DNA from: Escherichia phage a20
Length of the DNA: 64,000 nucleotides
Sequence record: OQ067374.1
Direction: 5' to 3' (one strand)
Shown: positions 1,046 to 52,552 of the stretch, in pieces
Numbering within the stretch: position 1 is the first letter of the stretch
How the letters are laid out: every line of letters starts with the position of its first letter
Notes under the pieces: generated by a model
Database searches by the model: none
What the model saw: the letters and a program-made list of their open reading frames with translations, nothing else
Told to the model about the DNA's origin: nothing
Made by a program: the position numbers and the translations under genes

Positions 1046-1594
1046 TTAACGAGCCCATTTGATGATTTCTGTAATCAAAACATTACGTTCGCTTGCATTA
1101 AATCCTATAACTTTGTTAGCACCATCATGATTAAGTAATTGATACGTTTGGATTTTGTTATGAATTGCAAACTCTTCAAAATGTGAAATGACTGTATTAA
1201 AACCGAATGAAGACAAAGTAATAAGGTCGTCTTCAAAACTTTCAGTCATTTCGTTACGTGTTAAAATAATTGTGAACACATCATGGTTTTGGCAAAGACG
1301 AACATAATCCTGTTCATAAACGTCAAGAACCGAGTCCGCATCTTGTCGAATACGTCCATAAACCCAGTTACTAATATATCCACGGTCTAACAGATAAATC
1401 TTAGTAGGGTCTAAATAATTCAACATCGTTTCGAAACAGCCAACTTCATTTCGAGACTTAACATCGAAACGTCCATCAACTGTTCGTTTAGGGAAATCAA
1501 TCTTTACATATCTTTCACTAATTTCCATTATGTCATTAATGAAAGTTGTTTTACCAGCATTATCCGGGCCATCTACTAAAATAATTTTAGCCAT
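1046..1594 (-). CDS. P-loop kinase (NMP-kinase-like fold)
   Basis: 182 aa; Walker A GPDNAGKTT near N-terminus and LLDRGY resembling the thymidylate-kinase DRY motif. Lies where T4 has beta-gt. Confidence 0.5.
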   Translation of the reverse strand: MAKIILVDGPDNAGKTTFINDIMEISERYVKIDFPKRTVDGRFDVKSRNEVGCFETMLNYLDPTKIYLLDRGYISNWVYGRIRQDADSVLDVYEQDYVRLCQNHDVFTIILTRNEMTESFEDDLITLSSFGFNTVISHFEEFAIHNKIQTYQLLNHDGANKVIGFNASERNVLITEIIKWAR

Positions 1595-1595
1595 T

Positions 1596-2495
1596 TTATT
1601 CCTCGATTACGACATCTTCATATTTAGGTATATTATACGGTGAAGAAATTAAAGCATTAAAGTAGATGAACTCACCAAGACCTGGATGAAATACTTCTTC
1701 AGGATTTTCGAAATATTGAATCTTCGGACGTCCTTTAAGAATTTGATAGTATTCAGTTTTAGTTGGTTTAAAAATTCGAATCAACGCTTCTTCAGGATAC
1801 TTATTTCTGTCGAAGCTATTATTTGGATCGGTTATATAAAGCGGTTGGCCTAATTGAATTGCACATTCAACCACTTGTTCAAAACGATAGCATGGGTCAC
1901 TAATTCGAAATGGATGAAAAATACCATCTAGATGAATAGGAGCCAAATCACCTACAAGACGCTGCATGATGGAAGGACGTATAACTTTCTGCGTTACGAT
2001 AATCTTATTACCATCTGCACCTGCGTTAACCAGCACTTCTTTTTGACGTTCATTCAACACAGTAGTTTGAAGTGAACGATTAACCGACAACATATCGGTT
2101 TTTAAGAATTCGTCAATATAAAAACGTGGTTTATTAGGGTCTGCAGTGATATTGAAATTGAATTCTACATCAAAAGCGCCGTCATATCCGGTGATATCTG
2201 TGATTAGAAAATCACAATCATAATAAGCAATTAATGAATCAACCACAAATTCATTTTCAGTCCAGAAATATTTACGAGTGTTATACGCGTTATCTTTATA
2301 CCATAATGGAACAAACTTAAATTCTGGGAAAAGACGTTCACATTCTTTAATATCAGATGCATTACGTGGATATGTAATCACATCACCTGGATTAGCACGG
2401 TGCAAATGAAGTTGGAAGTTGCCATCCTTAAGGATAGCATACTGCCCAGTTTCATAAGACCGCATACTCAAAATAGGTACGCGGAAAATAGCCAT
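1596..2495 (-). CDS. hypothetical protein at the beta-glucosyltransferase locus
   Basis: 299 aa, tightly packed between the P-loop kinase and the hydroxymethylase; no resemblance to T4 beta-gt or alpha-gt as I recall them; contains a DCD (DxD-like) tripeptide. Confidence 0.55.
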   Translation of the reverse strand: MAIFRVPILSMRSYETGQYAILKDGNFQLHLHRANPGDVITYPRNASDIKECERLFPEFKFVPLWYKDNAYNTRKYFWTENEFVVDSLIAYYDCDFLITDITGYDGAFDVEFNFNITADPNKPRFYIDEFLKTDMLSVNRSLQTTVLNERQKEVLVNAGADGNKIIVTQKVIRPSIMQRLVGDLAPIHLDGIFHPFRISDPCYRFEQVVECAIQLGQPLYITDPNNSFDRNKYPEEALIRIFKPTKTEYYQILKGRPKIQYFENPEEVFHPGLGEFIYFNALISSPYNIPKYEDVVIEE

Positions 2496-3211
2496 TAGTC
2501 AAGGAATCCTTTAACATAATCAAAATCACGTTCAAACACATGGGCACTTACCATGGTATGAGTATAATCACCAACTTCTACACCACATTCGTTAGCGATA
2601 TAATGAAGTAATTTTCCTTGGAGATAAAAATCCAACTGCATAACAACAGCACAGTTCTGAGAACGCATATGACAGTGGGTATAAAGCTTACCATCACGAA
2701 TATAATAAGTCACTGAGTCAGTACATGGATATTCAAGAGTTTCGTCCGAATCAAGCAAAGCCTGATCAGAACTTTCTAGAATTTGGAACACAACTCTTCG
2801 AGAGTTAGGCTTCTCTTTAAGTTCTTTTAGAAGAGCTGGTAATTGGGCCGCAATGCGAGGACCATAGAAAGTGTTGAAGTTCGCCGGCAAAACATCTGAT
2901 TTTGGTTTAGAAATAAATTTAGCGACATTAGGATATGCCTTAAACGCTTCTTCTGCGTTGGTACCACCAGAAATCATAAACTTCCAGAAGTCTTCGGCAT
3001 ATTCATAAGAGATGCGGTTAATACGTGGGTCAGTCATTTTGAATGATGATGGAGTGTCAACAACTACTGTCATAGACCCAATTTCATTACAACGTCCAAT
3101 ACGAGAATCAGTTACGAATTCCGGGTTTTCTAAAATTTCACGATTGACTGCTTTAAATGCGGTTTGAAAATCTGCGGCTTTGATATATTTCATTGTGTTA
3201 TGTTTTCCCAT
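2495..3211 (-). CDS. 42: deoxypyrimidylate hydroxymethylase (thymidylate synthase superfamily, gp42-like, divergent)
   Basis: 238 aa; SRRVVFQ ... YPCTDSVTYYIRDGKLYTHCHMRSQN resembles the catalytic-Cys region of T4 dCMP hydroxymethylase; syntenic with gene 42; GAGGT precedes the ATG. Confidence 0.65.
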   Translation of the reverse strand: MGKHNTMKYIKAADFQTAFKAVNREILENPEFVTDSRIGRCNEIGSMTVVVDTPSSFKMTDPRINRISYEYAEDFWKFMISGGTNAEEAFKAYPNVAKFISKPKSDVLPANFNTFYGPRIAAQLPALLKELKEKPNSRRVVFQILESSDQALLDSDETLEYPCTDSVTYYIRDGKLYTHCHMRSQNCAVVMQLDFYLQGKLLHYIANECGVEVGDYTHTMVSAHVFERDFDYVKGFLD

Positions 3212-3253: not shown

Positions 3254-3493
3254 TTATTTGAATTTCTTAGCGATGTTGATATAACGTAAAGCTTCAGCAT
3301 CGATACTTCCAAGAACACTATGAAGAAATGCATCAGCGTAGTATTCCAATTGAACAGGTTCTTTAATCACTTTAGCCGCTTTGGTTCCAAACAGGCCCAT
3401 AAGGGCCTTTTTAAGAATTTGTTCATTAGTGTTCAGTTTCATAGTCAAAATCTCTTCATTAAGTTGGTGGTTAAAAGTTTTTCTAGAAATCAT
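3254..3493 (-). CDS. hypothetical small protein
   Basis: 79 aa ORF in operon context; no motif recognised. Confidence 0.4.
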   Translation of the reverse strand: MISRKTFNHQLNEEILTMKLNTNEQILKKALMGLFGTKAAKVIKEPVQLEYYADAFLHSVLGSIDAEALRYINIAKKFK

Positions 3494-4650
3494 TCTGGGT
3501 ACCTCAAAGCGTCATCAGAGTTAGTTATATCAATAATAGATATAGAATTTTCTGATAACCCATTTTTAGATAACTGACGTTTATAATATCTTTCACAATA
3601 TGTACACGTCGTCCCGCAGATTTCATTAGCACAATCGAAATCTGGATGTCTGAACCACCTTTTTTCTAAAAAGCCATCTAACAAAGAGGTTTCAATATTT
3701 ACTGTATGTGAAAACTCAGTTTCGTTTTCAAGAGTGAAAATAGTCTCTAAAGGCTTCCACAGTTCTAACAAATTACCTTCAAACTTTTCAGAAGCGTATG
3801 CTTCAAGAACTTTCAAAATGTAGTCTGTGCTACCTGTACGTCCTGAAACTTTGAATTGAGTGATACCAATATCATTATAAAGTTTCAAATCTTGAGGACG
3901 AACAAAACGAGTTCTCAACCAGTTAAATGGGTCTGTATCACGAGCTTTAATGCAGTGTTGCATTGGATATCCGTTTAAGGATTTAGCATCATCAGCTGTA
4001 ACATCAGTACTATGGAAAATATAGCAAGAGTCACGATAGCTACAATGTGTTGTATACCCTTTACCAGCATTAGAACAGAACTCATTTACAAGAACTTCAA
4101 ATATTATATTGTTCTTATTGCAAAACTCTGCTGCACGCTTCAGGAAAGAAACTGAACGGTTCTTATGAATTCCACAGCAGACCTTTTTGATATTATATTG
4201 GTCATGCAAGTATTTGATTTGAGTTACAGCATCGACATGTAGAATTGTTGAAACTTCAATCTCAATGTCTTTATTGACTTCACGAACAATTTCCATAACA
4301 ACAGGGTTAGCGATAGTAATACGCCATACGCCTATTGACCAAAGATACTGAACATAATCCTGAATAGCTTTCTTCTTCCACTCAACTAGTTCTCTTTTTG
4401 AACCAGGATTTATCGTGTTGAGTGTATAGTTAAAGCAAATACCTAATTCGTTACAACGTTTAACGTAATCTTCTAACATCTTTTTGTCAACGTCAGGAAG
4501 CCTAAAATCAGGTCTGGCTGCTACAAAAGCCATTTCTCTTGTAGAGCCGTATACTTCGTTTATCAAGCTATTAGGATAAGTTTTATTGAGCTCTACGATT
4601 TTATCAAGAAGAGCTAAATCAAAATTCGTTCCAATTTTAAAAGTATTCAT
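3490..4650 (-). CDS. hypothetical protein with C-terminal CX4CX3CX2C cysteine cluster
   Basis: 386 aa; C-terminal CANEICGTTCTYC plus further scattered Cys; no family confidently assigned. Confidence 0.6.
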   Translation of the reverse strand: MNTFKIGTNFDLALLDKIVELNKTYPNSLINEVYGSTREMAFVAARPDFRLPDVDKKMLEDYVKRCNELGICFNYTLNTINPGSKRELVEWKKKAIQDYVQYLWSIGVWRITIANPVVMEIVREVNKDIEIEVSTILHVDAVTQIKYLHDQYNIKKVCCGIHKNRSVSFLKRAAEFCNKNNIIFEVLVNEFCSNAGKGYTTHCSYRDSCYIFHSTDVTADDAKSLNGYPMQHCIKARDTDPFNWLRTRFVRPQDLKLYNDIGITQFKVSGRTGSTDYILKVLEAYASEKFEGNLLELWKPLETIFTLENETEFSHTVNIETSLLDGFLEKRWFRHPDFDCANEICGTTCTYCERYYKRQLSKNGLSENSISIIDITNSDDALRYPE

Positions 4651-4707: not shown

Positions 4708-5097
4708 TTATAGATTCGGTTTATATGATTTAAATGTTTCGAATTCGCCTTTATTCATAAGAGCTTTGAATTCGTCAGGACGCATAGCTTTGTCGTCGAT
4801 AATCCAATCATATACTGGTTTATGTGTTAGCAAATTATGGTACTTCAAACCAATGTTTTCCAAGTTCTGAATCAGACTTGGGAGAATGTCAATTGCTATA
4901 CGTCCAGGACCTACTGACTTCATACCGCGAGCAGTGTAAAGCGTTATGGTATGCCCTGCATCATACAGAGCATTAATAGCAGTCACCATTTCGACGTCTG
5001 GTTTGAAGTTCACGTAATCACGATTGTTATTCCACTCTGTTATACAATCATCGACGTCCACGCAAAGATGTAATGGTTTCATAGCAATATCCTTCAA
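4708..5097 (-). CDS. HAD-superfamily phosphatase-like protein
   Basis: 129 aa; LCVDVDDCIT resembles HAD motif I (DxDx); start may be the second Met at 5082. Its 5' end overlaps the 3' end of the homing endonuclease gene. Confidence 0.5.
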   Translation of the reverse strand: MKDIAMKPLHLCVDVDDCITEWNNNRDYVNFKPDVEMVTAINALYDAGHTITLYTARGMKSVGPGRIAIDILPSLIQNLENIGLKYHNLLTHKPVYDWIIDDKAMRPDEFKALMNKGEFETFKSYKPNL

Positions 5098-7479: not shown

Positions 7480-7663
7480 GTTGTGGTCCTCATTGGTAAG
7501 TAGGAGTATTGTACACTATTCTAGTTAAAGCATTCATACTTTGCTTGTAGTCCAATCATAATCCATCCAATTACAAGTGTTGGAATCATTACCGGAGCCG
7601 TTAAGCTCCAGTAGATAGTCATGACAAGCATCAATAGTAAAAGTCCTATTGCTATTGCTTTCA

Positions 7664-8296
7664 TTATTCGCCTCGTAACATGGCACCTAGTGCACCACCA
7701 GGGTGGAACTTAAGGAAATCATTAGAGGTAAATCCACGTTCAGACGAAAGGTTGATAGCAAACGTATCGATAAGCGCTAACAACAATGTAGTGGACATAG
7801 TCGGAGCCAGAGAATTCTCATCAACCTCTACTGCGATGCCTGTACAGAAAGAGTAATCAAAAAGGGCTTCATTTTCTTGTGGAATGTCTGGGTTACAATG
7901 CAACAGAATCTGTTTGACGTTCGGACGAATCATTTTAAGATGCTTAGCCACGCCTATCATTTCTTCAGTTTTACCAGAACGACTAATATGAATCAACACA
8001 TCATTAGGCGCAATGAATCCTGCATCACCGTGAGAATAATGCCCAGTGTTCAAGTACATACTCGGGATACCTAGTGAAGCAAAAGTCTCGGAAGCTTTAG
8101 TTGCGATATTAGCATTCTTACCAACACCTGTAATAATTACTCGGCTTTCATAATTACTAAGTCCCGGGCGTCGAAGAGTTTCTAGAATAGCATTATAACG
8201 AGCAGGGTTTTGACTAATTACTTTGGCCATAGCGGCCAAAGAAGAAGCTTGTTTTATGATTGCGTCAATAGCGATAGTAATAGGAGTAGTTTTCAT
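7664..8296 (-). CDS. SIS-domain sugar-phosphate isomerase (KdsD/KpsF-type, arabinose-5-phosphate isomerase-like, no CBS domains)
   Basis: 210 aa; VIITGVGKNANIATKASETFASLGIPS...HGDAGFIAPNDVLIHISRSGKTEE and LAPTMSTT...FHPGGALG align closely with the SIS domain of E. coli KdsD as I recall it. Confidence 0.75.
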   Translation of the reverse strand: MKTTPITIAIDAIIKQASSLAAMAKVISQNPARYNAILETLRRPGLSNYESRVIITGVGKNANIATKASETFASLGIPSMYLNTGHYSHGDAGFIAPNDVLIHISRSGKTEEMIGVAKHLKMIRPNVKQILLHCNPDIPQENEALFDYSFCTGIAVEVDENSLAPTMSTTLLLALIDTFAINLSSERGFTSNDFLKFHPGGALGAMLRGE

Positions 8297-8336
8297 ATTT
8301 CTCTCATTTAATTAGTTTACCGTCCATGGCATTATA

Positions 8337-11048
8337 TCAAAAATCGAACATATCGAACAGAGATGCTTTCTTCTCGTAATCGAGTTTCGCTGCTGATGTG
8401 AATCCTTCAAGTGGTTTAATAAATGTCTTCTCAAGGAGAACAGTGTAGTCCATCCAATGAAGTACGTCGTCTTTAATTAAATCTGTGATTTCAGTGCCAG
8501 AAGGCCATGCGATACATTTATCACCGAATGGGTTTCCTTCACGTAAAGGCAGAACATATACTTTTTCACCTTCTACAACTTGCGGTGCATCGATATTACC
8601 TTTGATAGCCCGGTTATATGTCAGAATTCCACGAATATGGAACGGACATTTGGGACCAGGGAATCCACCTACGTCATATTTAGCAATGTTATTCGCAGAA
8701 GATACCGACGCGATGCTAATATAATTCAATTGGCGGAATTCTTTTTCAAACTCTTTAAAATATTCTTGTAATGATTCTTCACCTTCTTGAAGCATACGAC
8801 GAATACATTCTTTAAGAGCTTTCTGTACTGCTTTAGGAGTCGAAGATTTCTGTGTTTCGAGACCCATGATTTTAAGCTTAGGTTCAGCGTATCTGGTTCC
8901 TTCCATATCCCACACGTTTAATGCATAACGTTTCTTACCAGTCCAGAATCCACCAATACCTTTAGAACCGAGCGGAGGACCAGCGATAGCTTCTCGGTCC
9001 ATGAACATCAAATGTTGCTTATTATTCATGTATTCGCACATTTCACGGAAACCTCTATCAATAGCAGGTTCCATACGTTCACGAGCGAACTTATCTAAGA
9101 AGTCTACCCAATGGTTGGTATCACGGAATTTAGATTCACCAACCTTATCGATAATTTTATCAGCAGATACGTAAATAGAGTCTGTATCACCATATAGAAC
9201 GAAAGCTTCACCTTCTGTACCACAAACTTCATTCAGATATTCATTAACTTTACGTTCAATCCACTGTAAAGCCATTTGACCAAATGTTGTGATTGCAGTA
9301 GCATTACGCAAATCATAATAACGGAACCAAACGTTGCCAAGTGCACCATAAAGTGAGTTGATAAGCAATTTACGGTTAATCTGTGCAGTCATACCTGCAA
9401 CTTCAGTACGTTGAGCTCTAAACAACATTTCATTAAGAGATTTAGCAGACAACTTTTTAATCTTTTCTTTAATCTCATCACTGAAGTCGAAACGATAATC
9501 AACATCTAATGGTTCGTCAACAGAAAGATTAGGATTATGCAATGCCTCTTTAATTATTTCACCATTACGTTGAGCTGCAAGCATGTAACCTTTATGTTCT
9601 TTACGTTGATTAAAGACCTTAGTGATTTCAGTTGGAACTACACCATCACGGTCTTTATAATACATCATGCCGTTAGGAGAGCAACTGTACACATCTGAAG
9701 GACGTTCAGCGATTGCGTTAATATAATCATGCAGTGGAGCTACTTTAAACGTTCCTGCTATTGTTTCCGGGCTAATATTCACTTGGCGAATAATACTTGG
9801 ATACAGAGATGTAAGGTCGAAACTCATTACATATTTGTATCGATTTGGAATAGGTTCCTTAACAAAAGCGCCAGGATAAGGTTGAACCGGGTGAGAACGA
9901 CCTTGTGGAATCACCTTGTTCTGCTCTTTAAGGCTATTAAAAATAATAGCATCCCATGTTTTAATTGGACTGAACACAGATTGAATCTGAATTTTAGCAT
10001 AATAACCCATGTCCAAGCTCAAGTTAATGAACTGGCGTTTAGCATCAATTTGCAATACACGATATACGTCGATGATGTTATAGCTTATATATCGTTGATG
10101 ATTACTTTCGCGAAGTTTAGAAATAGGACCGTCATATTTCAGTTTACCAACGTTCAATTCAAATTCTGAAATGTAATCCAGAGAATACGACGGTTGATTG
10201 GTAAAAGAGAATTTTTTGTAAAGGTCAATGTAATCAAGAACAGAGATACCGAACAATGTAATGATTTCACGAGAACCATACATGTTTTCGATAACTTTAA
10301 CACGAGTTTTACGATGCGGTGATAAACGTTTCGCAGTAGATTCGCCAAAAATATTCTTGATTCGGTTATACACATATGGAATATCAAATGACTCAACGTT
10401 CCATCCAGTCAAAATGACAGGAGTTTTCTGTTGCCAGAAGTTGAGATATTCCATCAACAATTCTTTTTCGTTATCGAACGGCATATAAATGATTTTATCG
10501 ATAATTTCAGATGGAACTTCATCACCGCCTTGTTCTTGAAGCTTAGCAGCGATTTCAATAGACCATTCTTCTACATTACCATACGGAGAATTCAATAGAT
10601 CAAATACGTAGAACCTGTCGTCAATTGAGTCATAATGGGTGATAGCATCAATCGGATGTTTTGCTTGTGACGGCTCAGGGAACCCATCCGGAGATGTTAC
10701 TTCGATGTCGAAGTTAGCCACACGAATTTTTGTATGGTCGTATTTGATTTCATAGTTATAAGTGTCAGACAAATACGCCAATTTGAAATCGTCCATGCCA
10801 AGTGCTTCAAGTCCGATATCTTCCATGCGTTTAATCCATTGGGAGGCATCACGCATATTAGCGAACAACTTACGAGTACACGGTTTACCGTAGATATCGA
10901 AATATTTCGTAGCCTGACTTTCTGGACAATGAGCAAACAGTGATGGTTTATATTCTACTTCACGAGTACGTTCACGGCCATTAGAATCGATGTAACGTTC
11001 AAAAATTGAATCACCAATCTGTTCAACCGTTAAGTAAAATTCTTTCAT
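8337..11048 (-). CDS. 43: DNA polymerase (family B)
   Basis: 903 aa; exonuclease FDIE and polymerase YGDTDS motifs; reads as RB69 gp43 from memory. Confidence 0.97.
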   Translation of the reverse strand: MKEFYLTVEQIGDSIFERYIDSNGRERTREVEYKPSLFAHCPESQATKYFDIYGKPCTRKLFANMRDASQWIKRMEDIGLEALGMDDFKLAYLSDTYNYEIKYDHTKIRVANFDIEVTSPDGFPEPSQAKHPIDAITHYDSIDDRFYVFDLLNSPYGNVEEWSIEIAAKLQEQGGDEVPSEIIDKIIYMPFDNEKELLMEYLNFWQQKTPVILTGWNVESFDIPYVYNRIKNIFGESTAKRLSPHRKTRVKVIENMYGSREIITLFGISVLDYIDLYKKFSFTNQPSYSLDYISEFELNVGKLKYDGPISKLRESNHQRYISYNIIDVYRVLQIDAKRQFINLSLDMGYYAKIQIQSVFSPIKTWDAIIFNSLKEQNKVIPQGRSHPVQPYPGAFVKEPIPNRYKYVMSFDLTSLYPSIIRQVNISPETIAGTFKVAPLHDYINAIAERPSDVYSCSPNGMMYYKDRDGVVPTEITKVFNQRKEHKGYMLAAQRNGEIIKEALHNPNLSVDEPLDVDYRFDFSDEIKEKIKKLSAKSLNEMLFRAQRTEVAGMTAQINRKLLINSLYGALGNVWFRYYDLRNATAITTFGQMALQWIERKVNEYLNEVCGTEGEAFVLYGDTDSIYVSADKIIDKVGESKFRDTNHWVDFLDKFARERMEPAIDRGFREMCEYMNNKQHLMFMDREAIAGPPLGSKGIGGFWTGKKRYALNVWDMEGTRYAEPKLKIMGLETQKSSTPKAVQKALKECIRRMLQEGEESLQEYFKEFEKEFRQLNYISIASVSSANNIAKYDVGGFPGPKCPFHIRGILTYNRAIKGNIDAPQVVEGEKVYVLPLREGNPFGDKCIAWPSGTEITDLIKDDVLHWMDYTVLLEKTFIKPLEGFTSAAKLDYEKKASLFDMFDF

Positions 11049-11129
11049 TTAATTTCCTTTAGACGAGTTATTGTCTTTTGTTTGTTGATGAACTTATTAT
11101 ACTCCAAATGGGACCGAAGTCCCATTGCT

Positions 11130-11498
11130 TTAATTACCAATTGTATATTTTGCTTTCAAAGTCCAGTCATCTTTCTGTTTAAAAGAGATAACACGAAAGT
11201 TATTAGTCAGGCCAAACAGATCTTCACGAGCAGAGTCTTCAATAACAATCAAGCCCCAGTCTTCAAGCAACTGGGCAATCGAATCACGTCGCTGATAGTC
11301 TTCACCGTCAATATCAACCTGACGTCCATCCATACGCAACATTTCTTTAAAGTGGACGATGTAATATTTACCTTGCTTTTGGAGTATATGACAGGACTGA
11401 TAAAGGACTTTATCCTTGTTATTAGCGATGCCCATACGGGTCAAAGTCTCTTTGACTTTCAGAAAATCTTCAGGGTTCTTCAATTTAATTTCGATCAT
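11130..11498 (-). CDS. regA: RegA translational repressor
   Basis: ORF track gives 11130..11507; T4 RegA begins MIEI..., so start set at the in-frame Met at 11498; strong match to T4 RegA. Confidence 0.9.
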   Translation of the reverse strand: MIEIKLKNPEDFLKVKETLTRMGIANNKDKVLYQSCHILQKQGKYYIVHFKEMLRMDGRQVDIDGEDYQRRDSIAQLLEDWGLIVIEDSAREDLFGLTNNFRVISFKQKDDWTLKAKYTIGN

Positions 11499-11500
11499 TT

Positions 11501-12064
11501 TTACCATTCCAATGCTAATTTTTTAAATTGTTTTTGTTCTTTCACATTTTTTGTAACTTCTTTGAGAAACTCATCAGTGACCATGGCCTTCAGTTCTTTA
11601 AGGACTATTGGCAACTTGTTATTTTTTTCAAGGAGCCGCTTATACTCGGTAGCATCATTCATGTTGATTGTGTAATGTTTCATCAACAGTTTGATAACTA
11701 GTAACTCTGAAGTGTCTTCAACTAGTTTAGCCCATTTAGAGAATCGACGACCACGCGGAATTGCCGCCATCATATAGTTGAAGTGTGCTTCATCACTTAA
11801 TTCAGAACCGACTAAGTTCATCATGTAAACAGCTGGCATACATTCCGGGAACTGGGATAATGAGTTCTCAACCATAAATTTTGAGTAGTCGACCTGAGCA
11901 ATTGACATAGATTTCTTTTCATTAATAGCATTAATGATTTTAAAGAATTCATTCTCAGGTTTTTCTTTAAACATATCAGCACATTTTTGAATCGCATCAG
12001 CGTCATTAGACTTCCATGCAATTTGGTGCTCGTTAAGCCGGACGTCATCATCGAATAAGTTCAT
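11501..12064 (-). CDS. 62: clamp loader small subunit
   Basis: 187 aa; synteny 45-44-62-regA-43 and similarity to T4 gp62. Confidence 0.9.
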
Positions 12065-12065
12065 A

Positions 12066-13028
12066 TTATTTCCAAGTCAGTTCACAAGTCAATTGAAGAA
12101 GCATATACATAACATGTAATTCAATATTACTAGCTAGTCCATGAAACTTATTATTTTCGCCTGCAATTTCGTAAAGCGAAATAATACTTTTACCAGGTGC
12201 AACTTGGTCATAACATTCTGAAACTAATTTATCGATGAACCATGAATAATCTGCAGCATATTTTGGAGCTAATGCACGAAGTTGTTTGATATCTTTGTTC
12301 TTCATTGCTTCGATAACATCAGAGACTGTGCCACGGTCATTAGTTACGATAGACAGAATACCTGCATCGAGAACACCTTTAGACGAGTACTGGTCTAATT
12401 GTCCAATTGTACGACGAAAGTCCGGGAAGTTCTTTTTAACCAGAGCTGCAACAACTTTCATATCAGCGATTTCGATATTTTCGTTCTTACAGATTTCAAC
12501 CATACGATGAATCATTTTCTTCATCATCGAGATTTTATCTTCTTCGGTTGGACGTCCGAATTCGATAACTCGACAACGACTACGTAATGGTTCAATAATT
12601 CCATCGATGTTGTTAGCAGTAATAATAATAGAACAGTTACTAGAGAATTCTTCCATGAATGTACGAAGGTGCCGTTGTGATTCAGCAAGGCCACTACGGT
12701 CAAATTCATCGATAACGATAACTTTCGGCTTGCCTTCCATTGAGACTGAACGAGCGAATGCAGTTAACGGACCACGCACAAAATCAATCTTACAATCAGA
12801 ACCGTTGACGAACATCATTTCAGCGTTGATATCGTTACATAATGCTTTTGCTACGGTTGTTTTACCTGTACCAGGAGAAGGAGAGTGCAAAATAATATGA
12901 GGAAGTTTTCCTTTAGATACTAAAGACTTGAATGTTTCATGGTCATACGCAGGCAGAATACATTCGTCAATGGAAGAAGGACGATATTTCTGTTCTAGAA
13001 TGTGTTCTTTGGAATTGATAGTAATCAT
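12066..13028 (-). CDS. 44: clamp loader large subunit (AAA+)
   Basis: 320 aa; Walker [11 protein letters not shown]; synteny. Confidence 0.92.
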
Positions 13029-51817: not shown

Positions 51818-52552
51818 TTACCTTAAGATTGTTTCAATTTTAGAATAAAGCTCTTCTAAAGAGCCGTCGTTTGTAATAACTAAATCGCCTTCTTCAATAG
51901 GCAACCCAGCTTCTGTAATATGTTTATCTGTGGATTCCGTACCAGAGCGAACCACATGAATAACTGTAGCACCCATCGCTCTAGCGGTTTCCATTTCATG
52001 GACTTGGCGTGTATCGGTTACAACATAGTAATCGAAATCACTTCCAATATAATCCATATAGTTTAATGCAAAAAGTTTAACCCAATACATACGGTCAAAT
52101 AAATTAACGACAACATCCGTACCGAGGGCTTGCATAAGACGGCGGATTGACCATGTGTCGTTGATATTATTTATAGCTTCACGCAGGGCTTCATATGGTT
52201 TAATATCTAGATATGAATACCCACCTTCTAATGATGATAATACTTTAACATTATTAATTGGTAAATATTGACTTTGTAAATAAATTAGCGCTTCTTCCAT
52301 TAATTCAATAACATCCAACTTATTGAGATTTAATGGTGTTTCACGGTCGTATCCAATGCCTTCAAAGTATTCGTATTTCAACTCTGTGAATACATCAGGA
52401 TCTTCAGCATGTTTACGTCCCCAGGCTATTGCTAGAGCGTCTTTAATCGGATATGCCAATTGGTATTTTACGGATTTAAAGTTTGAATTGATGTAATCAG
52501 CAGTAGTGTCTTTACCACTACGTTTGATGCCACTTAAAAAGATTAGCTCCAT
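51818..52552 (-). CDS. 1: deoxynucleoside monophosphate kinase
   Basis: 244 aa; LSGIKRSGKDTTAD P-loop and strong match to T4 gp1. Confidence 0.93.
   Translation of the reverse strand: MELIFLSGIKRSGKDTTADYINSNFKSVKYQLAYPIKDALAIAWGRKHAEDPDVFTELKYEYFEGIGYDRETPLNLNKLDVIELMEEALIYLQSQYLPINNVKVLSSLEGGYSYLDIKPYEALREAINNINDTWSIRRLMQALGTDVVVNLFDRMYWVKLFALNYMDYIGSDFDYYVVTDTRQVHEMETARAMGATVIHVVRSGTESTDKHITEAGLPIEEGDLVITNDGSLEELYSKIETILR

Follow-up and report, generated by a model that had tools for sequence, protein, structure and literature searches.

The 64,000-nucleotide stretch of Escherichia phage a20 analysed here (sequence record OQ067374.1; hereafter the window) carries on its minus strand a gene for a thymidylate-kinase-like P-loop kinase. 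The best explanation of our findings is that this gene forms a regular part of the 5-hydroxycytosine DNA-modification cassette and that its product is a small, soluble, ATP-dependent deoxynucleoside monophosphate (dNMP) kinase with the thymidylate-kinase (TMPK) fold. We further propose that it is a dedicated kinase for a modified dCMP, namely 5-hydroxy-dCMP (5hodCMP), a proposal to which we would assign about an even chance. The evidence comes from the predicted fold and its conserved motifs, and from the close co-occurrence and synteny of the kinase with the 5hodCMP synthase in phage genomes.

The kinase gene and its family

The gene is the sole open reading frame (ORF) of the interval 1046-1594, exactly where an earlier note on this DNA had placed a reading frame with a P-loop. 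Its protein, 182 amino acids in length, begins with MAKIILVDGPDNAGKTTF and carries the Walker A sequence GPDNAGKT at residues 9-16. The phage is an RB69-type T-even phage (Mosigvirus), the first 8 kb of the window being 99.1% identical to Escherichia phage NRG-P0074 and 98.0% identical to RB69; the kinase itself is 100% identical to the NRG-P0074 copy and 98.9% identical to that of RB69. The gene is real: homologues are found by tblastn in 343 phage records, 18 homologues with identities down to 42% share 37 invariant columns, and one pair of divergent copies gives a dN/dS of ~0.18, with dS near saturation. The family is a small one: out of 1.8 billion cluster representatives, searched exhaustively with its profile, only 316 proteins were recovered at E≤1e-3.

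Fold and conserved motifs

PDB searches, whether by the single sequence or by a profile, returned matches at the level of the P-loop only (RecA, thioredoxin noise, and TMPKs at E 0.003-0.07), and the fold therefore had to come from a predicted model. In the structural ranking of this model the TMPKs stand on top, followed by PPK2, NadR and deoxynucleoside kinases. In PHROGs the protein falls into phrog_761, “thymidylate kinase” (E 4e-45). In Pfam and NCBIfam no family scores above its threshold: PF02223 gives no match at E≤0.1, and the NCBIfam dTMP kinase family TIGR00041 reaches 16 bits against a cutoff of 83.25.

The earlier note had described the protein as similar to nucleoside monophosphate kinases and had named thymidylate kinase, gluconate/shikimate kinase and polynucleotide kinase as candidate folds. 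The first of these is the fold of the model, and the other two were rejected on fold grounds. Gluconate/shikimate kinase is not the best structural match; no polynucleotide kinase occurs among the top 60 structural matches, and structural similarity to the kinase domain of the T4 Pnk type was not found. The T4 gene 1 dNMP kinase type (Pfam DNMK PF21448) was also rejected, neither its profile nor the gp1-type fold being present. The canonical gene 1 kinase, which the note had rightly kept apart from the present protein, is encoded elsewhere in the window and belongs to another family (Table 1).

The motifs of the protein are those of TMPKs, with some modifications. Its P-loop, G9-P-D11-N-A-G14-K15-T16-T17, follows the pattern GxDxxGK[ST]T with the conserved Asp, and G9, D11, N12, G14, K15 and T16 are invariant among the 18 homologues. 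HMMER aligned the kinase motifs to the segments GLDKSGKTT, FPQRST and VDRYAFSGVAY of vaccinia TMPK, and they align to the motifs of yeast TMPK as well. The F34-P35-K36(-R37) motif is invariant, as are D70, R71, S75, N76, V78 and Y79 of a second stretch, aligned by HMMER to LIVDRYAFSGVAYAA of vaccinia TMPK. This stretch, which aligns to LIVDRYAFSGVAY of PDB entry 2v54, conforms to the pattern DR(Y/F/H)xxS...aromatic, except that its third position is Gly and not aromatic. In the lid region, a family-specific and presumably functional acidic motif has invariant F120, D122, D123, L124 and I125, of which D122 is invariant in remote members too.

In the TMPKs of human and Mycobacterium tuberculosis, the acceptor's 3'-OH is bound by the Asp of the P-loop, the arginine of the DR motif bridges the donor and acceptor phosphates, and the aromatic residue that follows the Ser lies against the 2' position, so that ribonucleotides are disfavoured. 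Because the invariant residues of the window kinase match these catalytic residues, we infer that its acceptor is most likely a deoxynucleoside monophosphate. The protein is acidic, with an isoelectric point (pI) of 5.0 (range 4.4-6.0 across 27 copies), compared with 4.7 for the gene 1 kinase.

Association with the 5-hydroxy-dCMP synthase

The thymidylate-synthase homologue of the window, which the earlier note had taken for a hydroxymethylase adjacent to the kinase, is a 5hodCMP synthase. It is 99% identical to RB69 gp48 and carries the diagnostic MRSQN (D169N) signature, and gp48 has been shown experimentally to be a flavin/O2-dependent 5hodCMP synthase (Lee et al., NAR 2026, PMC13326640). 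In RB69 DNA, arabinose is joined to C5 of cytosine directly via oxygen (PMC13326640). The base to be considered in this phage group is consequently 5-hydroxycytosine, rather than the hydroxymethyl-dCMP or hydroxymethylcytosine (hmC) DNA that the note had in mind. The immediate upstream neighbour of the kinase is a glycosyltransferase, referred to below as GT1, with the synthase one gene beyond.

Kinase and synthase were compared across 50,697 phage records by tblastn (E≤1e-5 for the kinase, E≤1e-10 for the gp48-type synthase). The 343 records with a kinase stand against 377 with a synthase. When the records are sorted by the genus name they bear, the numbers of kinases and synthases are, respectively, 176 and 176 for Escherichia, 57 and 57 for Acinetobacter, 25 and 26 for Klebsiella, 15 and 15 for Shigella, 9 and 9 for both Enterobacter and Serratia, 7 and 7 for Proteus, and 6 and 6 for Yersinia. 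The counts disagree only in Klebsiella and in Rhizobium phages, 22 of the latter possessing the synthase only. Among the kinase matches listed, those for Escherichia come from Mosigvirus, Dhakavirus and EcS1-type phages; the listed matches include no hmC phage of the T4 type.

The same association is evident in a sample of 61 IMG/VR loci that carry a D169N synthase, of which 57 were assessed, the other four ending just after the synthase or GT1. A TMPK-like gene lies on the same strand, at most ~3.5 kb downstream or ~2 kb upstream of the synthase, in 54 of the 57; in the remaining three (L076, L078 and the Tenacibaculum-phage-like L082) the kinase was not found. The commonest order, synthase-GT1-kinase, is seen in 34 of the 54 loci, which include four Pootjesviridae-type loci and synthases only 33-59% identical to that of the window. 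Eleven loci, from Dhaka-, Marfa- and Bragaviruses, show the order HAD-kinase-(U32)-synthase-GT1, and a single locus (L070) shows synthase-kinase-GT1. In the other eight, the kinase is located 1.3-3 kb downstream of the synthase and GT1 is not recognisable. The window kinase is likewise co-localised and co-oriented with a D169N synthase, and is on this basis a member of the glycosyl-5-hydroxycytosine cluster defined by Lee et al. (2026). The close co-occurrence and the synteny thus bear out the link to base-modification genes that the earlier note had drawn from the neighbourhood alone.

The TMPK-like genes near the synthases fall into three sequence-distinct subfamilies: that of the window (A1), that of the Pootjesviridae, with the P-loop EGLDRTGKDT (P10VF_179), and a third distinguished by the motifs EGLSRTGKST, ILDRSFLSE.VYS and RGPKDR. 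The GT1 proteins of Straboviridae and Pootjesviridae are homologues (E 3e-7); the former attach arabinose to their DNA, the latter hexoses (galactose/glucose). Because three subfamilies fill the same slot while the attached sugars differ, the need for a kinase follows 5-hydroxycytosine, the product of the synthase, and not the sugar.

Two further observations concern these kinases. The third subfamily comes from large contigs of uncultured phages (L068-L070, L072-L075, L086 and L087), in which its genes lie 0-3 kb downstream of a D169N synthase; most of these loci are without a recognisable GT1 homologue. In metagenomic phage contigs, remote members of the window kinase's family are fusion proteins whose C-terminal part is an HhH-GPD DNA-glycosylase-like domain bearing the conserved motif EP[LFM]DKEL (Table 1). 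In L028 the fusion is followed by genes for a flavin mononucleotide (FMN) reductase, an SIS isomerase and an AfhE-like protein, and GT1 was not found in the available stretch of the contig.

Proposed function

A comparative study of 2021 (PMC8056088) enters the RB69 kinase, RB69p045, as a homologue of thymidylate kinase and assigns it “presumably” to the modification. RB69 gp45, DLP3 gp78 and RL38J1 gp214 are given as “nucleotide kinase” in a fold-match table (PMC13326640, Table 1), in a paper that holds no discussion or assay of the gp45-type nucleotide kinase. The earlier note had proposed three substrates, namely a modified nucleotide, a sugar or a base within DNA. A modified nucleotide fits best, in view of the invariant acceptor motifs of TMPK type (FPK(R), DR, S75 and Y79) and the acidity of the protein. 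The case for a pentose is countered by the AfhE-like gene and by the kinases of hexose-bearing phages, and that for a base in DNA by family, motif and charge, as detailed below.

In the pathway that we propose, dCTPase and the synthase gp48 would convert dCTP and dCMP to 5hodCMP, which the kinase would accept in its TMPK acceptor site and phosphorylate with the gamma-phosphate of ATP to 5-hydroxy-dCDP. Within this site FPK(R) and R71 would hold the acceptor phosphate and D11 the 3'-OH, with Y79 gating the 2' position, whereas ATP would be bound by K15/T16 and by R113 of the lid. The host nucleoside diphosphate kinase would then form the triphosphate, the phage polymerase would incorporate it, and the arabinosyltransferases would complete the modification. 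The synthase-GT1-kinase trio may in this manner constitute a portable, self-sufficient cassette, supplied with its own kinase and independent of the kinases of the recipient phage or host.

Several points weigh against a dedicated 5hodCMP kinase. The gene 1 kinase of RB69 (gp159) converts 5hodCMP to 5-hydroxy-dCDP in vitro, and gp48 together with gp159 puts 5-hydroxy-deoxycytidine into E. coli plasmid DNA, gp48 alone yielding a trace (PMC13326640); the gp45-type kinase is therefore not strictly required for this step, and in T-even backgrounds its proposed role overlaps that of the gene 1 kinase. The residues that would contact the base are not mappable: residues 33-47, equivalent to helices alpha2/alpha3 of TMPK, are shortened and modelled at low confidence (predicted local distance difference test, pLDDT, of 55-62), such that neither F43/R48 nor F54/L58 can be assigned as thymine contacts. 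The accessible literature, to which He et al. 2026 and Mahler et al. 2025 did not belong, gives no enzymology or knockout of the kinase, and a phage transposon-sequencing (Tn-seq) preprint that includes Bas46 and LC53 gives no gene-level essentiality for either phage.

Morganella phage MP1 (vB_MmoM_MP1, KX078569 / NC_031020) likewise speaks against the proposal. It retains an intact kinase with all motifs between DNA polymerase and uvsX (L025 20500-21030), and a search of the first 150 of its 163 kb turned up no synthase, GT1, U32, HAD, AfhE-like or isomerase gene; a 2021 survey also finds no synthase homologue in MP1 (PMC8056088). Its genus-mate Rgz1 possesses synthase, GT1, U32, HAD, AfhE-like and isomerase genes at the site where MP1 has none. 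The kinases of the two phages are 59% identical and the flanking UvsX proteins 93%, figures from which the age of the cluster loss in MP1, and hence the meaning of the retained kinase, cannot be judged.

Alternative explanations

The kinase could be a general dTMP or dNMP kinase that travels with the cassette, has no preference for modified cytosine and is redundant with the gene 1 kinase. We consider this unlikely, although its fold and motifs are those of thymidylate kinase, databases annotate it as such, MP1 keeps it without a synthase, and the gene 1 kinase covers 5hodCMP in vitro. The protein scores far under the dTMP-kinase thresholds, and the agreement of its genus counts with those of the synthase, together with the lack of T4-type hmC phages among the matches listed, would be hard to explain for such an enzyme. 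Moreover, in T4-type phages the gene 1 kinase (T4 gp1) already phosphorylates dTMP.

Somewhat less probable still is that glycosylation precedes incorporation: GT1 would glycosylate 5hodCMP, the kinase would phosphorylate the resulting 5-O-glycosyl-dCMP, and the polymerase would incorporate the glycosylated dCTP, a second kinase being needed since that of gene 1 would be unable to handle so bulky a nucleotide. Such a scheme would account for the presence of a second kinase beside gene 1, and it agrees with the order synthase-GT1-kinase, in overlapping or abutting genes, being the commonest across very different lineages. Lee et al. (2026) explicitly leave it open, and no individual glycosyltransferase, GT1 included, was active in vitro on 5-hydroxycytosine DNA with UDP-arabinose (PMC13326640). 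The charge of GT1 gives mild support. Its pI is 5.1 in the window, with a median of 4.97 and a range of 4.55-6.12 over 42 IMG/VR loci, compared with 5.5-7.8 for the later glycosyltransferases, whose action on DNA has been demonstrated or predicted. Although pI is weak evidence, the difference hints faintly that GT1 may lack non-specific DNA binding. Against the scheme stand the T-even paradigm and the proven action of later arabinosyltransferases on DNA, both of which favour glycosylation of the polymer. Gene order, in addition, is variable, as in the Dhaka-, Marfa- and Bragaviruses and in L070, and in L028 and L030 a kinase follows the synthase with no GT1 found in the available contig stretch. 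The polymerisation of a pre-glycosylated dCTP is not known as a route to any glycosylated phage DNA.

A role in the sugar branch, either as a pentose or sugar-phosphate kinase or as a UMP/UDP-recycling kinase that sustains UDP-arabinose synthesis, appears very improbable. It would suit the arrangement in Braga-, Marfa- and Dhakaviruses, where the kinase gene comes immediately after those for the HAD phosphatase and the AfhE-like protein. The sugar-1-kinase step, however, has been assigned to the AfhE-like gene (PMC13326640), and the Pootjesviridae, with hexoses on their DNA, also have a kinase of this fold alongside the synthase; this assignment, together with a need for the kinase that follows 5-hydroxycytosine and not the sugar, argues against a pentose kinase.

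We credit least the idea that the kinase acts on DNA, alone or with the first transferase, by phosphorylating or priming 5-hydroxycytosine in the polymer in the manner of 5-HMUDK: the family does align by hhalign with the N-terminal half of 5-HMUDK M6 gp54 (probability 82%, over 84 columns only), and its remote members fused to an HhH-GPD domain beside a D169N synthase recall the pairs and fusions of 5-HMUDK with HhH-fold transferases in thymidine hypermodification (PMC8989533), but there is no match to PF18748 at E≤0.1, the invariant LDRG of the family is FEG in gp54, the window kinase is acidic and gp54 basic, and a phosphate leaving group would have no obvious role because the C5 oxygen is retained, directly ether-linked, in the finished modification.

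Organisation of the modification cluster

The coordinates of the kinase, its motifs and its neighbours are given in Table 1. From uvsX to DNA polymerase, the kinase and all neighbouring genes are co-oriented on the minus strand. The stop codon of the synthase overlaps the start of GT1 (TAATG), and the GT1 stop codon TAA (1596-1598) is one base away from the kinase ATG (1592-1594), which a GAGGA ribosome-binding site precedes by 5 nt. In many other lineages the GT1 and kinase genes overlap, for example by 13 nt in L051. A promoter and terminator scan revealed no terminator-like site between synthase, GT1 and kinase, and shuffled sequence contained promoter-like sites at least as often.

Table 1. 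Positions of the kinase gene, its motifs, the genes of the surrounding cluster and related genes in other phage contigs. Positions refer to the window unless a locus number is given.
Feature	Position	Strand	Remarks
uvsX	starts 947, continues past window start	minus	
Thymidylate-kinase-like P-loop kinase, 182 aa	1046..1594	minus	RB69 ORF045c/gp45 (NP_861735.1) orthologue
Lid motif F120-E-D122-D123-L124-I125	1220..1237	minus	family-specific, acidic; after R113
D70-R71-G-Y-I-S75-N76-W-V78-Y79 codons	1358..1387	minus	equivalent of TMPK DRY..S...Y/F; acceptor-phosphate and deoxyribose motif
P-loop codons G9-P-D11-N12-A-G14-K15-T16	1547..1570	minus	GxDxxGKT, thymidylate-kinase style
GAGGA ribosome-binding site of the kinase	1600..1604	minus	read from the sequence; within the final GT1 codons
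GT1, candidate first DNA/nucleotide arabinosyltransferase (RB69 gp46:47), 299 aa	1596..2495	minus	phrog_3891; PMC13326640 Table 1; P10VF_178 homologue
5hodCMP synthase, thymidylate-synthase homologue (RB69 gp48)	2495..3211	minus	Pfam Thymidylat_synt E 2e-15; MRSQN/D169N
79-aa ORF (gp49)	3254..3493	minus	
U32-family protein (RB69 gp50), cluster member	3490..4650	minus	Pfam Peptidase_U32 E 7e-11; weak UbiU match
HAD phosphatase (RB69 gp51, AfhF-like)	4708..5097	minus	phrog_1238; PMC13326640
GIY-YIG homing endonuclease, 253 aa	5048..5809	minus	
Bifunctional sugar-1-kinase / NDP-sugar pyrophosphorylase (RB69 gp52:53, AfhE-like), 561 aa	5794..7479	minus	Pfam NTP_transferase and APH-like matches; PMC13326640
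Arabinose-5-phosphate isomerase (RB69 gp55), cluster end	7664..8296	minus	ORF call; matching RB69 and NRG-P0074 gene annotation
DNA polymerase	8337..11048	minus	beyond the cluster end
Canonical gene 1 dNMP kinase, 244 aa (RB69 gp159 orthologue)	51818..52552	minus	comparator outside the cluster; Pfam DNMK PF21448, 324 bits
Kinase-HhH-GPD fusion (P0059)	L028 8001-9074		directly downstream of D169N-type synthase
Kinase-HhH-GPD fusion (P0060)	L030 1446-2390		directly downstream of D169N-type synthase
Kinase-HhH-GPD fusion (P0064)			directly downstream of D169N-type synthase
Chorismate mutase type II	L023 7023-7400		PF01817
Chorismate mutase type II	L024 4892-5278		PF01817
Chorismate mutase type II	L022 8600-8986		PF01817

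The RB69 reference splits two genes (ORF046c/047c and ORF052c/053c), each of which is an undivided ORF in the window, coding for GT1 and the AfhE-like protein, respectively; their counterparts in RB69 (L001) lie at 7596-8496 and 11093-12779. The intact ORFs are in line with the published interpretation of the RB69 splits as sequencing errors. The GIY-YIG gene sits between the HAD and AfhE-like genes and overlaps both, and is present in NRG-P0074 but not in RB69. Distant relatives of this homing endonuclease (~31% identity) are located just after the HAD gene in phages of other genera (L005, L006, L008 and L013).

In Gualtarvirus and Bragavirus, the U32 gene is followed by one for a type II chorismate mutase (PF01817, 46-47 bits against a cutoff of 27), which lies between U32 and the 5hodCMP synthase. 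The U32 proteins RlhA, TrhP and UbiU/V are O2-independent, prephenate-dependent hydroxylases, and prephenate is the product of chorismate mutase. The combination suggests that U32 and chorismate mutase may provide an anaerobic back-up route to 5-hydroxycytosine alongside the O2/flavin route. The loci of Dhakavirus and of Acinetobacter phages have no U32 gene, and gp49 of the window, considered as a candidate chorismate mutase, shows no similarity to one. Lee et al. label gp50 as a “sugar or heterocycle reductase” (PMC13326640).

Significance

In RB69-type phages and in many therapeutic phages of Acinetobacter, Klebsiella and Serratia, all cytosine is replaced by arabinosylated 5-hydroxycytosine, a chemistry that was worked out in 2025-2026. 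The kinase gene is already known and annotated in the literature (the 2021 and 2026 papers), and as such is an ordinary find in this window. It is nevertheless the sole conserved gene of the cluster without experiment or discussion in the accessible papers, and its distribution follows that of the 5hodCMP synthase more closely than does the distribution of any sugar gene, across three or more phage lineages and with three sequence types unrelated to one another. The remaining interest lies in why 5-hydroxycytosine phages retain a second kinase. Its substrate, once known, would close the nucleotide branch of the pathway and decide whether the first glycosylation takes place on the nucleotide or on DNA, and would be relevant to the engineering of 5-hydroxycytosine phages and to the enzymatic synthesis of glycosylated DNA.

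Comparison with known kinases

The window kinase shows no substantive difference from RB69 gp45, Acinetobacter phage DLP3 gp78 and the other Straboviridae orthologues. Compared with the RB69 gp45 locus, only the neighbours differ, the GT1 and AfhE-like ORFs being intact here and the GIY-YIG gene inserted.

The canonical TMPKs, such as vaccinia A48R (PDB 2v54) and yeast Cdc8 (1tmk), share the fold, and the identity of the kinase to the top-ranked TMPK structures is 9-19%. The window kinase is shorter by ~20-30 residues and has only one helix between its strands 2 and 3, and its P-loop contains Asn where class I TMPKs have Arg. It also possesses the invariant acidic FEDDLI motif in the lid, scores under every family threshold and, unlike canonical TMPKs, occurs almost only beside 5hodCMP synthases. 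The T4 gene 1 dNMP kinase (PDB 1dek) is, like the window kinase, a P-loop dNMP kinase of phages, but of a different protein family.

The 5-HMUDK enzymes, represented by M6 gp54 (PF18748), a proven 5-hydroxymethyl-deoxyuridine DNA kinase (PMC8989533), are small P-loop kinases of the same broad TMPK/deoxynucleoside-kinase-like superfamily that also serve phage base hypermodification. Fusions or pairs with HhH glycosylase-like proteins occur with both. The 5-HMUDK protein, however, acts on the hydroxyl of a base in DNA, is basic (pI 8.7), lacks the DR motif and matches PF18748 with 65 bits. Since the window kinase is without a PF18748 match, keeps the DR motif and is acidic, it is not a member of the 5-HMUDK family and does not look like a DNA-binding protein.

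The kinase of the Pootjesviridae (RL38J1 gp214 / P10VF_179) belongs to another phage family, and yet has a TMPK-like fold and occupies the same slot in the same order, synthase-GT1-kinase. Its similarity to the window kinase is confined to the P-loop (BLASTP E 0.022), and the hidden Markov model of the window family misses it, which points either to independent recruitment of a TMPK-like enzyme into the same position of the cassette or to extreme divergence.

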